Numbered from the stretch's first letter, positions 3,008 to 28,312 are shown. The stretch: 32,000 nt of DNA from Candidatus Saccharimonadota bacterium (GCA_963705375.1 OY970071.1:540001-572000); one strand, 5' to 3'. Numbers and translations are program-made. The notes: generated by a model from the sequence alone, not told the origin.

Positions 3008-4660
3008 TTGGCAAAATTTATTGTTACGGCTGCGCTGCCCTATGCTGAGGGCATAATGCATCTGGGCAACATGGTCGGCAGCGTGCTGCCTGCGGACGTT
3101 TACCACAAATATCTGACTTTCAAGGGTGAAGACTCGATATTCATATGCGGGTCGGACCAGCACGGCACACCCATAGAGGTGAAAGCACTGGAAAAGAGGG
3201 TTGCGCCAGAAGTGCTTGCCGAAGAGATCCACGGGCTGACAAAGAAGGCGCTCCTCGATTTCGGCTGCACGTTCACGCATTACGGCAAGACCAACACAGA
3301 GGAGAACAAGAGCACTGTTTATGAGATATTCGAGGCTCTCATGAAAAACAACCTAATCATAGAGACTGCGACAGAGATGCCTTACTGCAGCATAGACAAG
3401 CGCTACCTGCCCGATAGGTTCATCGAAGGGACATGCCCGTACTGCAAGAAGGAGGGTGCACGGGGAGATCAGTGCGACAGCTGCGGACACTTGCTTGAAC
3501 CGAGGAGCCTGATAGCGCCGCACTGCAGAATATGCGCGAACACGAACATAGTGTTCAGGCCTGTCAAGAATCTTGCCATCGACCTGAAAACGCTGCAGCC
3601 GAAGATAGAGGCGTTTGTCAGCACCAACTCGAAGAACAAGTGGAGCAAGAATGCGGTCAATGCGCCGAAGCCATACTTCAAAGAAGGGCTCAGGCCAAGG
3701 GACATCACACGCAACCTCAAATGGGGATTCCCTGTACCTGTCAAGGGTTTTGAGGATGCGACGTTCTACGTCTGGTTCGATGCTCCGATAGGATACATTG
3801 GCATAACAAGAGAGACCGTCAAGGACTGGAGGAAGTACTGGACAGACAAAGAGAGAAAGCTTGTACAGTTCATGGGCAAGGACAACATCGAGTTCCACAC
3901 GATCATGTGGCCCGGAATGCTCATTGGTGCTGATCTCGGCTACATACTTCCGACGACAATAAGGGCTTCAGAGTGGCTTACAGCAAAAGGCATAAAGTTC
4001 TCTAAGAGCAAGGGCGTTGGCCTCAACATACAGAACGCACTCGACATAGTAGGGCCTGATTACTGGCGCTTTGCGCTCATGCACCTGTACCCGGAGACAG
4101 CAGACTCTGAATTCTCGATAGCAGGATTCGTGGACATAGTCAACAACATGATGAATGACGCCATAGGAAATTTCGTTCATAGGGCACTCACCCTATACAA
4201 GAACAACGCTGACATTCTGAAGGGTGGCGCAGCAGAGTCTGAGGACCTCATCCAGAACATAAAGAACATAGAGGAATCTTATGAGAAGAGCTTTGAAAAG
4301 CTGGAACTGAGAGAGGCACTCTTCAGCGTGTTAGAGCTTGCGAACTACGGCAACGAGATAATGAGCACAAGGGAGCCGTGGGCGATGGCGAGCGGTGCTA
4401 AGACCGACGAGAAGAGCAGAAAGGAATTCGTAGAGATAATGAACACGCTGCTCAGAATCGCAAGGGACATCGGCGTGCTGCTATGGCCCTTCACACCTCA
4501 TGCCAGCTCCAAAATATGCGCTTACTTTGGCATAAAGCAGGCCACGTATGCAGAGCTCAATAACAAGGTGGCTGTAAACCTTGATGAGCCGTTAAGGCCT
4601 GTGTTCAGCAAGATAACAGAAAGGGAACTTGCACTCCTTGAGAAGTTCGCAAAGGAATAA
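3008..4660 (+). CDS. metG: Methionyl-tRNA synthetase, catalytic core without the C-terminal tRNA-binding domain
   Basis: TTG start. Class I motifs are present: the HIGH variant HLGN and the KMSKS variant KFSKSKG. It also has zinc-knuckle cysteines (CPYC...CDSC...CRIC). Confidence 0.9.
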   Translation: MAKFIVTAALPYAEGIMHLGNMVGSVLPADVYHKYLTFKGEDSIFICGSDQHGTPIEVKALEKRVAPEVLAEEIHGLTKKALLDFGCTFTHYGKTNTEENKSTVYEIFEALMKNNLIIETATEMPYCSIDKRYLPDRFIEGTCPYCKKEGARGDQCDSCGHLLEPRSLIAPHCRICANTNIVFRPVKNLAIDLKTLQPKIEAFVSTNSKNKWSKNAVNAPKPYFKEGLRPRDITRNLKWGFPVPVKGFEDATFYVWFDAPIGYIGITRETVKDWRKYWTDKERKLVQFMGKDNIEFHTIMWPGMLIGADLGYILPTTIRASEWLTAKGIKFSKSKGVGLNIQNALDIVGPDYWRFALMHLYPETADSEFSIAGFVDIVNNMMNDAIGNFVHRALTLYKNNADILKGGAAESEDLIQNIKNIEESYEKSFEKLELREALFSVLELANYGNEIMSTREPWAMASGAKTDEKSRKEFVEIMNTLLRIARDIGVLLWPFTPHASSKICAYFGIKQATYAELNNKVAVNLDEPLRPVFSKITERELALLEKFAKE

Positions 4661-13267: not shown

Positions 13268-13301
13268 GGATGTAGTCTTGAGTTGTGCAAAGAGGACCGC
13301 A
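13268..13301 (+). other. 5' strand of the pre-16S processing stem with a BHB motif
   Basis: GGATGTAGTCTTGAGT pairs with 15385-15400 (16 bp). The central GTGC pairs with GCAT at 15378-15381. This is followed by a 3-nt AAA bulge and then the inner helix GAGGA-CCGCA, which pairs with 15367-15377. Confidence 0.6.
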
Positions 13302-14385
13302 CAACGCCAATAAATAAGTAAAAGGCTAAATAGACTCCAGTCGATGCTGCTGGAGAACACCGCTATCAGATTTCGACAGCCATGCAAGTCAGCCCTGCGA
13401 CTTCGCAGGACGGCGAACGGCTCAGTAACACGTAGTCAATCTAACGCAAAGAGGTGGATATCCTCGCGAAAGTGAGGTTAATACACCATACGCTATTGCA
13501 CCTGGAAAGAGCGATAGTATAAAGGCGCACGAAATGTAGTGTTGCCACTTTGCGATGAGACTGCGGCGGATCAGGCAGATGGTGGGGTAACTGCCCACCA
13601 TACCAATAACCCGTAGGGGATGTGAGAGCAAGCGCCCCGAGAAGGGCACTGAGATAAGGGCCCTAGCGCTACGGCGTGCAGCAGGCGCGCAAACTTCACA
13701 ATGCGCGAAAGCGTGATGAGGGGAATCTGAGTGGATAACTTTTAGTTATCCTTTTGCCAAGTATATCAAGCTTGGCGAATAAGTGCTGGGCAAGACAGGT
13801 GGCAGCCGCCACGGTAATACCTGCAGCACAAGTGGTGTTCACGATTATTGGGCTTAAAGCGCTCGTAGCTTGCATGTTCCGTCTTGTGTGAAATATTGGT
13901 GCTCAACATCAATGCGAGCACGAGATACCGACATGCTGGGGAGCGGGTGAGGTCAGGGGTACTTATAGGGGAGGGGTTAAATCCTGTAATCCTATAAGGA
14001 CCAACGGTGGCGAAGGCGCCTGACCAGAACGCATTCGACAGTGAGGAGCGAAGGCTAGGAGAACGAATCGGATTAGATACCCGAATAGCCCTAGCAGTAA
14101 ATTATGCAGACTCTAGTGTTGCACGTGACACGATCACGTGCAGTACCGTAGCGTAAGCGTTAAGTCTGCCGCCTGGGGAGTACGGCCGCAAGGTTGAAAC
14201 TTAAAACAATTGGCGGGGGAGCACCACAAGGGGTGGATGCTGCGGTTCAATTGAACTCAACGTCGGAAATATTACCAGGAGCGACGGCAGTATGAAGGTC
14301 AAGCTAAAGACTTTACCTGACAAGCCGAGAGGTAGTGCATGGCGATCGTCAGCTCGTGGTGTGAACTGTCCGGTTAAGTCCGGTA

Positions 14386-14897
14386 AGCTGGTGAGTAATT
14401 GGCTAGAAGGCTCGCATTGAATCCAGATATATGCTACATGCTTGGTCTGTACGCAAGCAATTTGCGTGCAGAGTCGGCAGTAGTGACAACAGTGGGCAGC
14501 GATGCCCTTGTCGAGCGCTTCGTCAAGATAGCAGTTCAGCAGTTGGGCATAGAACCAGGAAAGATCCTGATAAGGGACCTTGGTACGCGCAAGAGCGCGT
14601 TTTTCTATAACTCTAAGCTGAGAAAGCATCTTGATAACGCATTGGAGCGCAAGGAACATATCTTCAAGTACAGGAACGAGTATTCGGCCAGTTATTTTGC
14701 GGCTCTCTTCGACTGCAATGGAGTGACAGGCGCTAGCGGCACATACATAATCCGCCTTAGTGCTTTCGATTCCCTTCTTCTTGAGAAGCTGGGATTCCAC
14801 ACATTGACAAAGAGAGGCAGATGTTACATCGCGAACTCGTTAGACTTTATGATTTTCATAAAGCCTTTTAGCATATCAATTGCTCATCAGCCCGGTT
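14386..14897 (+). mobile_element. Archaeal BHB-type intron within the 16S rRNA gene, near the E. coli position 1100 region
   Basis: The conserved GTTAAGTCCGGTA / ACGAGCAAGACCC is interrupted. The central helix is CCGG (14380-83) paired with CCGG (14892-95). There are 3-nt bulges TAA (14384-86) and TTA (14896-98), and a 16-bp inner helix (14387-14402 with 14876-14891). The exact junction could shift by 1-2 nt. Confidence 0.75.
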
Positions 14898-14917
14898 ACG
14901 AGCAAGACCCTTGCTGA
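14399..14917 (+). CDS. Intron-encoded double-motif LAGLIDADG homing-endonuclease-like protein
   Basis: 172 aa, with motif 1 YMLGLYASN and motif 2 YFAALFDCNG about 86 aa apart. The TTG start directly follows an in-frame TAA. The ORF runs 20 nt into the 3' exon. Confidence 0.75.
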   Translation: MARRLALNPDICYMLGLYASNLRAESAVVTTVGSDALVERFVKIAVQQLGIEPGKILIRDLGTRKSAFFYNSKLRKHLDNALERKEHIFKYRNEYSASYFAALFDCNGVTGASGTYIIRLSAFDSLLLEKLGFHTLTKRGRCYIANSLDFMIFIKPFSISIAHQPGYEQDPC

Positions 14918-15366
14918 CAGTTGCAACCTATCCAGCGATGGGTAGGGCACTCTGTCGGGACCGCCTCTGTTTAAAGAGGAGGAAGGAGAGGGCAACGGTA
15001 CGTCAGTATGCTCTGAATCTCCTGGGCCACACGTGGCATACAAAGGTTGGCACAATGGGATGCAATACCGAAAGGTAAAGCAAACCCCCTAAAACCAACC
15101 CTGGTTCGGATTGAGGGCTGAAACCCGCCCTCATGAAGCTGAAATCCCTAGTAATCGCTTGTCAACATCGAGCGGTGAATCTGTCCCTGCTCCTTGCACA
15201 CACCGCCTGCCAAGTCACCCAAGTGGGGTCCTAGCGAGGTTGTGCCTTTGGCATAATCGAGTTAGGATTCTGTAAGGAGGGCTAAGGCATAACAAGGTAT
15301 CCGTAGGGGAACCTGCGGATAGATCACCTCAAATATCATTTAGTGTGCATAATAACAGCAATCGAA

Positions 15367-15400
15367 TGCGGATCCTCGCATAAAACTCAAGACTACATTC
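15367..15400 (+). other. 3' strand of the pre-16S processing stem with a BHB motif
   Basis: It is complementary to 13268-13301: TGCGG-A-TCCTC (inner), GCAT (central), AAA bulge, then ACTCAAGACTACATTC (outer). Confidence 0.6.
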
Positions 15401-28238: not shown

Positions 28239-28312
28239 CGGGCCCGGTGGGATTTGGACCCACGACCTACGGATTAAAAGTCCGCCACTCTGCCATGCTG
28301 AGTTACGGGCCC
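28239..28312 (-). tRNA. tRNA-Lys(UUU), no intron, CCA not encoded
   Basis: It folds as a 74-nt cloverleaf:
- Acceptor stem: GGGCCCG/CGGGCCC.
- D arm: ACTC...GAGT.
- Anticodon arm: stem GCGGA/TCCGT, loop CTTTTAA.
- T arm: GTGGG-TCCAAAT-CCCAC.
- Discriminator: G. Confidence 0.93.

Follow-up and report, generated by a model that had tools for sequence, protein, structure and literature searches.

A 16S rRNA gene intron of a Micrarchaeota archaeon probably encodes a selected LAGLIDADG protein that has lost its nuclease activity

The 32,000-nt stretch of DNA analysed here (OY970071.1:540001-572000 of assembly GCA_963705375.1, recorded as Candidatus Saccharimonadota bacterium; hereafter, the window) contains an archaeal 16S rRNA gene interrupted by a 512-nt insertion at positions 14386–14897 of the plus strand. 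This insertion is probably a protein-spliced intron of the bulge-helix-bulge (BHB) type carrying a nuclease-dead LAGLIDADG protein that is under selection, vertically inherited and domesticated. A cmscan search detected a full-length archaeal small subunit (SSU) rRNA at 13334–15332 (+) (Rfam RF01959; 1325 bits; model positions 1–1478). In a focused alignment to the same model, a single insertion of about 513 nt followed GUUAAG, while all other parts of the 16S were aligned with high posterior probability. Both exons, 13334–14385 and 14898–15332, were delimited by this alignment, with the end of the 5′ exon fixed by the BHB rule and by comparison with relatives that lack the intron; these relatives also served to place the 3′ exon. 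An earlier note, made from the sequence alone, had proposed a 16S gene split by a 512-nt intron with these limits; the single insertion in an otherwise full-length covariance-model match, together with the consensus of intron-less relatives that is restored upon its removal, bears this out. The exons of the window gene shared 98% identity with the 16S of L001, an uncultured Candidatus Micrarchaeota bin, and 81–95% with other Micrarchaeota 16S genes. By these identities, the host is a Micrarchaeota (DPANN) archaeon.

The sequence of the two junctions is ...GUCCGGUUAAGU-CCGG-UA|A-GCUGGUGAGUAAUUGG...CAAUUGCUCAUCAGC-CCGG-UU|A-CGAGC..., each strand following the canonical BHB order of central helix, 3-nt bulge and next helix. 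The central helix pairs the exonic CCGG at 14380–14383 with the intronic CCGG at 14892–14895. It is followed by a 5′ bulge, UA|A (14384–14386; predicted cleavage after 14385), and by a 16-bp inner helix, h′, G-U pairs included, formed between 14387–14402 and 14876–14891. On the other strand it is followed by a 3′ bulge, UU|A (14896–14898; predicted cleavage after 14897), not closed by a contiguous outer helix. The centroid fold of positions 14340–14940, calculated from the thermodynamic ensemble, contained both helices, CCGG/CCGG and the 16-bp inner one, as well as the UAA bulge, and the z-score of the whole fold was −5.65. Cutting after the second nucleotide of each bulge would excise positions 14386–14897 (512 nt) and yield ...GUCCGGUA|ACGAGC. 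The predicted ligation product, GUCCGGUAACGAGC, matches the intron-less relatives exactly (Micrarchaeota 16S genes lacking the intron read GTCCGGTAACGAGC at the same place, and the intron-less target site is GGTTAAGTCCGGTAACGAGCAAGACCC), in agreement with the cutting rule proposed in the earlier note. Since CCGGU(A/U)A occurs at both junctions, alignment alone leaves the boundary ambiguous within about 8 nt; because of this repeat, the literature numbers the locus as E. coli position 1093, while the cut by the BHB rule falls a few nt 3′ of it.

A contiguous exon-exon outer helix, as the strict hBHBh′ motif demands, was not found at the junctions in the folds of the window or of its relatives, as had been anticipated from the window sequence. 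Outer pairing was limited to a 3-bp GUU/AGC helix or to the non-contiguous rRNA helix GCUCG/CGAGC. The junction is therefore a relaxed HBh′ motif. The CGAGC of the 3′ exon (14899–14903) pairs with GCUCG (14353–14357) in the mature rRNA, and through a three-way junction this helix may close off the 3′ bulge, partly replacing the outer helix. A relaxed HBh′ motif also fits the broad specificity of the epsilon2 form of EndA; that of Micrarchaeum ARMAN-2 cleaves relaxed BHB motifs in vitro (PMC3239211).

Introns of 505–532 nt were present at the same site in seven species-representative genomes (loci L001, L009, L012, L014, L015, L016 and L025) and in one additional metagenome contig (L048). All eight retain UA|A at the 5′ bulge, CCGG, and (UU/AA/UA)|A at the 3′ bulge. 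Covariation was analysed in nine junction constructs, comprising the window and these eight introns, in all of which the CCGG of the 5′ strand was invariant. In the proposed register, 86% of cells were paired, compared with 26–44% when the 3′ strand was slid. Changes on both sides were seen at 10 of the 16 inner-helix pairs (examples of strands that changed together are GCUGGUGAG/CUCAUCAGC, GUUGAC/GUUGAC and ACCUG/CAGGU), and the covariation score, 0.405 as against 0.244 in shuffled alignments, was reached by none of 500 shuffles. The comparison indicates that the junction fold is maintained by compensatory changes and, with the centroid fold, upholds the relaxed BHB that had been suggested from the window alone.

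The insertion could instead remain unspliced, as an expansion segment of the mature 16S, or be excised without ligation of the exons, giving a fragmented rRNA. The splicing of an equivalent insertion in strain ARM-1 has been called uncertain (Sakai et al. 2022; PMC8784108), the BHB is relaxed, and neither a spliced nor a circular junction was found in metagenome contigs. The spliced junction, searched with the window-specific exons, gave 0 matches in these contigs, and the only match to the circular-junction pattern CAGCCCGGWWAGCTGGTGAGT, in contig L049, was discarded as a chance hit with no homologous ORF or flanks; both results are uninformative on splicing. However, the site lies within the universally conserved helix 35–36 block, both predicted cuts fall at the canonical second nucleotide, the junction fold is upheld by compensatory changes, and ligation at these cuts would reproduce exactly what relatives lacking the intron read here. 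The absence of splicing is thus unlikely.

The intron contains an open reading frame (ORF) encoding 172 aa, with a TTG start (14399–14917, +), which occupies 499 of the 512 intron nt (all but 13 nt) and extends 20 nt into the 3′ exon, matching the ORF described earlier. The TTG (14399–14401) sits inside the 5′ strand of the inner helix, and homologues start with ATG at the same aligned position. Joining the intron ends, T14897 to A14386 and G14387, would create an in-frame TAG, and the ORF would end exactly at the predicted circular junction. The linear excised intron of the window contains no stop codon in this frame. For the intron of L025, the stop in the circle comes four codons later, while in L012 and L016 a stop is found just 5′ of the CCCGG at the 3′ junction. 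An exact-protein contig look-up found no exact match on record for the window protein.

Neither Pfam nor NCBIfam matched the window protein, and a single-protein search of the PDB was unhelpful; the LAGLIDADG_3 family was weakly matched in 5 of 22 relatives (best E 0.0033). The fold was revealed only by the family profile and a predicted structure, not by single-sequence searches. The AlphaFold2 model, built from a 23-sequence alignment, had a predicted local distance difference test score (pLDDT) of 90.7 and a predicted template modelling score (pTM) of 0.87. Its 37 best Foldseek matches in the PDB were all I-DmoI or the chimera E-DreI (E 3e-7 to 6e-5; TM-score 0.60–0.67), followed by LAGLIDADG inteins, WhiA (3hyi/3hyj; E 3e-3) and I-Tsp061I. 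When the family profile was compared with the PDB, I-DmoI also ranked first (E 0.015 for the chimera and 0.3–0.5 for the native protein), and an hhalign comparison of the family with I-DmoI gave E 0.0028 over 131 columns. The relationship to LAGLIDADG proteins read from the two motifs is thus recovered from the predicted structure and the family profile, even though the domain databases are silent. The model shows the two-domain LAGLIDADG architecture, in which α-β-β-α-β-β-α domains pack through the two LAGLIDADG helices, with only three strands in domain 1. Because hhalign also placed an 11-residue deletion immediately after the predicted helix 9–20, the first β-hairpin of the N-terminal domain appears to be missing.

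The two LAGLIDADG motifs are degenerate. Motif 1, CYMLGLYASN (14432–14461, +), ends in Asn21 (codon 14459–14461), and motif 2, YFAALFDCNG (14693–14722, +), contains an invariant Asp105 and Asn107 (codon 14717–14719); both asparagine codons are AAT. Between them, FKYRNEY (14663–14683, +) forms the inter-domain linker, the most conserved non-helical stretch of the family. Hidden Markov model (HMM) and HH alignments placed FDCNG on the YVAEG of I-DmoI, and hence Asn107 on E117. For motif 1, the ungapped register YMLGLYASN/YLLGLIIGD, at the end of the predicted helix 9–20, puts Asn21 on D21. In characterised enzymes each LAGLIDADG helix ends in an acidic residue that binds metal; in the window protein, as the earlier note had stated, asparagine stands at both of these positions.

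This loss extends to the whole family. A scan of genomes (one per species) recovered 44 loci, from 44 different assemblies. In these loci and the window, the catalytic position of motif 1 was acidic in 0 of 44 cases (G9 N8 S7 T7 R6 A4 ...) and that of motif 2 was Asp in only two of 45 (the others including N7 V7 C5 K4 Y4 R4 M4 ...), whereas Asp105, at motif position 6, was present in 45 of 45. The family is small: when 1.84 billion cluster representatives were searched exhaustively with the profile, only 127 clusters were returned. Among 132 proteins of at least 130 aa pooled from the searches, most of them 50%-identity cluster representatives, both positions were acidic only in the two weakest, fringe matches. 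At least one of these (P0148) has canonical motifs (LLGVLAGDGS and LFDAEG) and looks like a conventional endonuclease bordering on the family. A word-indexed profile search returned 376 proteins. Most of the best 120 of these were unnamed, and where a source name was given it was almost always ‘hypothetical protein’, mostly from Micrarchaeota; two were named ‘LAGLIDADG family homing endonuclease’ (NCBI).

That the ORF still encodes an active homing endonuclease, with a non-canonical site formed by an Asn-coordinated metal, Asp105 or other acids, and that it drives homing of the intron, appears improbable. In its favour, the model shows an intact fold at high confidence, Asp105 and Asp124 hardly vary, and introns occupy this one site in several lineages. 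Nevertheless, the metal-binding positions are hypervariable (G, N, S, T, R or A in motif 1; N, V, C, K, Y, R or M in motif 2), and motif 1 lacks any conserved acidic residue. Asp105 occupies motif position 6, a residue that is structural in canonical LAGLIDADG enzymes. The distribution is not the patchy one of a mobile element either: the family is present as one copy per genome, and co-diverges with the 16S gene. Protein identity followed that of the neighbouring 3′ exon of the 16S (Mantel rho 0.46; none of 2000 permutations as high), and neighbour-joining trees of the protein and of the 16S recovered the same groups, an inheritance that appears vertical. Of the 44 loci, 43 are labelled as Micrarchaeota or subgroups of it; as far as the records are labelled, the family seems confined to this lineage. 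The remaining locus, L007 (DATLRT010000016.1), is a contig binned as ‘Candidatus Acidiferrales bacterium’ that begins with a family member grouping with L004; it is probably a mis-binned archaeal contig.

Loss of the catalytic residues, and the failure of Pfam to recognize the protein, would also be seen in a remnant decaying by neutral drift after fixation of the intron, which is the default expectation for fixed intron ORFs. This possibility is strongly disfavoured. The reading frame was open in all 45 copies, and the ratio of non-synonymous to synonymous substitutions (dN/dS, Nei-Gojobori) was 0.05–0.31 in the 15 evaluable pairs out of 17, the other two being saturated; for intronic pairs it was 0.145 (window and L001), 0.168 (L009 and L014) and 0.204 (L012 and L016). 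The most conserved parts of the protein were the two LAGLIDADG helices and the FKYKNEY inter-domain linker, and the least conserved the β strands of the DNA-binding saddle. Blocks of the FKYKNEYSA type were kept down to an overall identity of 27%, and the gene persists after leaving the intron (see below). These substitution patterns indicate that the family is under purifying selection. The suggestion of a nuclease-dead or repurposed protein, originally based on the two asparagines, gains strength from the finding that both positions vary freely across a family that is itself under purifying selection.

A self-splicing group I or group II intron is very improbable and was rejected: although group I introns with LAGLIDADG ORFs have been found in Micrarchaeota rRNA genes (Nawrocki et al. 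2018), they lie at other positions (the published archaeal group I sites are SSU/1498 and positions in the large subunit (LSU) rRNA), no Rfam intron family, groups I and II included, matched 14380–14900 even at E ≤ 10 with lax filters, and an ORF that fills 499 of 512 nt leaves no room for a ribozyme core.

The gene was found in three genomic settings. In the first it lies in the 16S intron (the window, the seven genome loci and metagenome contig L048 mentioned above). In the second it is a separate gene 116–2185 nt downstream of an intron-less 16S, on the same strand at 19 loci and convergent at L013; the longer of these distances contain unrelated genes. AT-rich, TATA-like boxes were seen by eye 30–50 nt upstream of the start of these downstream copies. 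The third setting is that of a distant clade (L030–L044; 15 loci, 27–37% identity), in which the gene lies directly 3′ of a conserved gene of about 160 codons, in a conserved neighbourhood of housekeeping genes that includes an RFC large-subunit-like ATPase, an amino-acid-kinase-family protein, NAD kinase and proteasome alpha (assigned by sequence motif). The ~160-aa partner, termed F2, always lies ahead of the L030–L044 copies, in the same orientation and only a few bases away (for example, at 2013–2501 in L033); it had no relative in Pfam or the PDB and was absent from the 16S-linked loci.

In both the protein and the 16S trees, intronic copies were interleaved with downstream copies. At L003, a 45-nt remnant of intron tail and 3′ exon lies behind the free-standing ORF (~3010–3055; score 40 against a null maximum of 21), and a 47-nt direct repeat of the 16S trailer (2331–2377 and 3058–3104) brackets the ORF cassette. 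The arrangement resembles the eroded product of a partial tandem duplication involving an intron-containing 16S. A systematic scan of 26 genome loci for flanking 16S relics gave a significant result only in L003; a 5′-flank match at L013 (score 22 against a null maximum of 20) was marginal and was set aside. In metagenome contigs L045 and L047, relics were recognized by eye at the end of the ORF (CCTGGTAACAAGCGAG..., and CCCGGTAATGAGCAGGACCTTCACTAA followed by cagttgcc, respectively). Because of these 3′-exon relics and the trailer repeat behind free-standing ORFs, it appears that at least the L003/L045/L047 subclade left an intron-containing 16S copy and kept the gene. Since a nuclease-dead protein cannot home, an ancestral intronic position followed by several exits seems more likely than repeated entries.

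Taken together, these observations suggest the following course of events. In the precursor rRNA, the exonic CCGG (14380–14383) would pair with the intronic CCGG (14892–14895) and the intron ends would form the 16-bp helix, presenting the 5′ splice site in a 3-nt bulge and the 3′ site in the three nucleotides after the central helix. EndA would then cut after 14385 and 14897, and RtcB would join the exons and circularize the intron, circularization making the in-frame TAG that would end the ORF at the junction. The product would be a single-chain, I-DmoI-like scaffold that has lost the metal-binding acids of both motifs and the first N-terminal β-hairpin. In several lineages the gene would have left the intron, surviving just downstream of an intron-less 16S, and elsewhere the intron would be retained as the carrier of a domesticated host factor. 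The protein is most likely such a factor, with a function for the host, because it appears nuclease-dead throughout the family, is single-copy and vertically inherited, is under purifying selection, and persists outside the intron. What that function may be can be proposed only tentatively: non-catalytic binding of nucleic acid tied to the rRNA gene or its transcript, as in maturation of the rRNA or the intron, or in ribosome assembly.

Several points weigh against this explanation. Splicing, circularization and translation are all predictions, as is the host function of the protein, and loss of nuclease activity is read from the sequence and a modelled structure. The motif lacks a contiguous exon-exon outer helix, and the minimum-energy folds of some relatives add a U-A pair to the central helix, which would abolish the 3′ bulge. 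The trees are both neighbour-joining trees on short alignments, movement from the intron to a free-standing position is supported for one subclade only, and the operon partner of the distant clade belongs to no recognizable family. The β-saddle is the least conserved part of the protein, which argues against a single conserved DNA target.

The closest published cases come from the same phylum. Strain ARM-1, a cultured member of the Micrarchaeota, was described as having a 522-bp insertion at E. coli position 1093 of its 16S (Sakai et al. 2022; PMC8784108), the inserted ORF encoding a hypothetical protein with 25% similarity to the ORF of the ARMAN-2 16S insertion and no other homology; its function was likewise considered uncertain (PMC8784108). 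The insertions of ARM-1 and ARMAN-2 (‘Ca. Micrarchaeum acidiphilum’, UNLARM2_0643, EET90204) resemble that of the window in the 16S locus, in a nearly identical length and in a single ORF that fills the insert. Their locus and size, rather than an alignment, suggest that these proteins and the window family are one and the same. The present analysis differs from that report in recognizing a LAGLIDADG fold with the active site missing, a BHB supported by covariation, and free-standing homologues; no paper was found that assigns this ORF family to the LAGLIDADG fold or notes its free-standing members.

I-DmoI, from a BHB intron in the 23S rRNA gene of Desulfurococcus mobilis, was the best structural and profile match. 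Like the window protein, it is a single chain of similar size with two LAGLIDADG helices, and its gene lies in a BHB intron of an archaeal rRNA gene. However, identity is only about 20%, where I-DmoI has D21 and E117 the window protein has Asn and the family almost any residue, the first N-terminal β-hairpin appears to be lacking, and the family is vertically inherited in single copy. Locus 1093 is also among the 16S intron sites of Thermoproteales, Desulfurococcales and Aigarchaeota (Jay & Inskeep 2015; PMC4496867). Those introns are of BHB type at the same or an adjacent locus, and many carry endonuclease ORFs; they belong to a different phylum, and are likened here by their published description, not by sequence. 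Their endonuclease genes group by geographic origin and not by genus (PMC4496867), which we read as mobility. Retention of a LAGLIDADG scaffold after loss of the catalytic acids is known from bacterial WhiA and from organellar group I maturases. Unlike WhiA, which was only a distant structural match (E 3e-3), the 172-aa window protein has no extra domain and no C-terminal helix-turn-helix (HTH). Unlike the maturases, its host intron is of BHB type, cut by proteins, and has no ribozyme fold to stabilize. It differs from both in belonging to an archaeal family of one lineage only.

The surroundings of the gene contain several further features. The 16S leader ATGTAGTCTTGAGTT (13270–13284) and trailer AACTCAAGACTACAT (15384–15398) are perfectly complementary over 15 bp, which is the usual archaeal processing stem of pre-16S rRNA, and a trailer motif, CTCGCATTAAAyCTCAAGACTAC, is conserved 3′ of the 16S genes at related loci. 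Rfam scans found no 23S gene in the 32-kb window, the 16S being thus unlinked to a 23S. The only other RNA gene detected in the window by ARAGORN and Rfam was a tRNA-Lys (28239–28312, minus strand); the intron-containing tRNA-Ser mentioned in the earlier note was not located by these tools, whose models do not cover introns in the T-loop. In some relatives the 16S carries a second intron, about 845 nt long (L009, 3283–4126; L016, 3266–4114; L020, 573–1426; L023, 560–1407) at the equivalent of window position ~15167, where the window has none. The ORF of this second intron matches HTH_3 in Pfam (E 2e-8), and its C-terminal part resembles PD-(D/E)xK by eye; this would be an intron ORF of a different kind. 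A 199-aa antisense ORF (14201–14800, minus strand) overlaps the intron ORF and the 5′ exon. It is probably spurious, since selection is seen in the plus-strand frame.

The insertion has a practical consequence, in that it breaks 16S-based detection and binning of these archaea; deleting positions 14386–14897 should give the correct mature sequence. While the intron itself is of a known kind, the protein represents an undescribed, lineage-wide, apparently nuclease-dead branch of the LAGLIDADG family that behaves like a host gene, and it gives a fold to the unexplained ‘hypothetical protein’ of the ARMAN-2 and ARM-1 16S insertions. It would be an exception to the expected cycle of homing endonucleases (invasion, fixation, decay and loss): across this DPANN lineage the nuclease appears to have been lost while the protein was kept, once per genome, in or out of the intron. 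A BHB intron needs no folding help, unlike the ribozyme introns aided by maturases, and the selected function must therefore be a different one. It is conceivable, though we consider it somewhat speculative, that the protein is a lineage-specific factor required by the cell, serving as an RNA chaperone or ‘maturase’ either at the relaxed BHB junction or during assembly of the 16S head domain, its gene residing inside the very rRNA it serves. If so, loss of the intron would need a prior copy of the gene elsewhere, which would explain repeated exits that leave exon fossils downstream of the 16S. In that case an archaeal BHB intron would, for the first time, have been shown to be the obligatory host of a protein-coding gene, and the protein would be the first domesticated LAGLIDADG protein to be described in Archaea.

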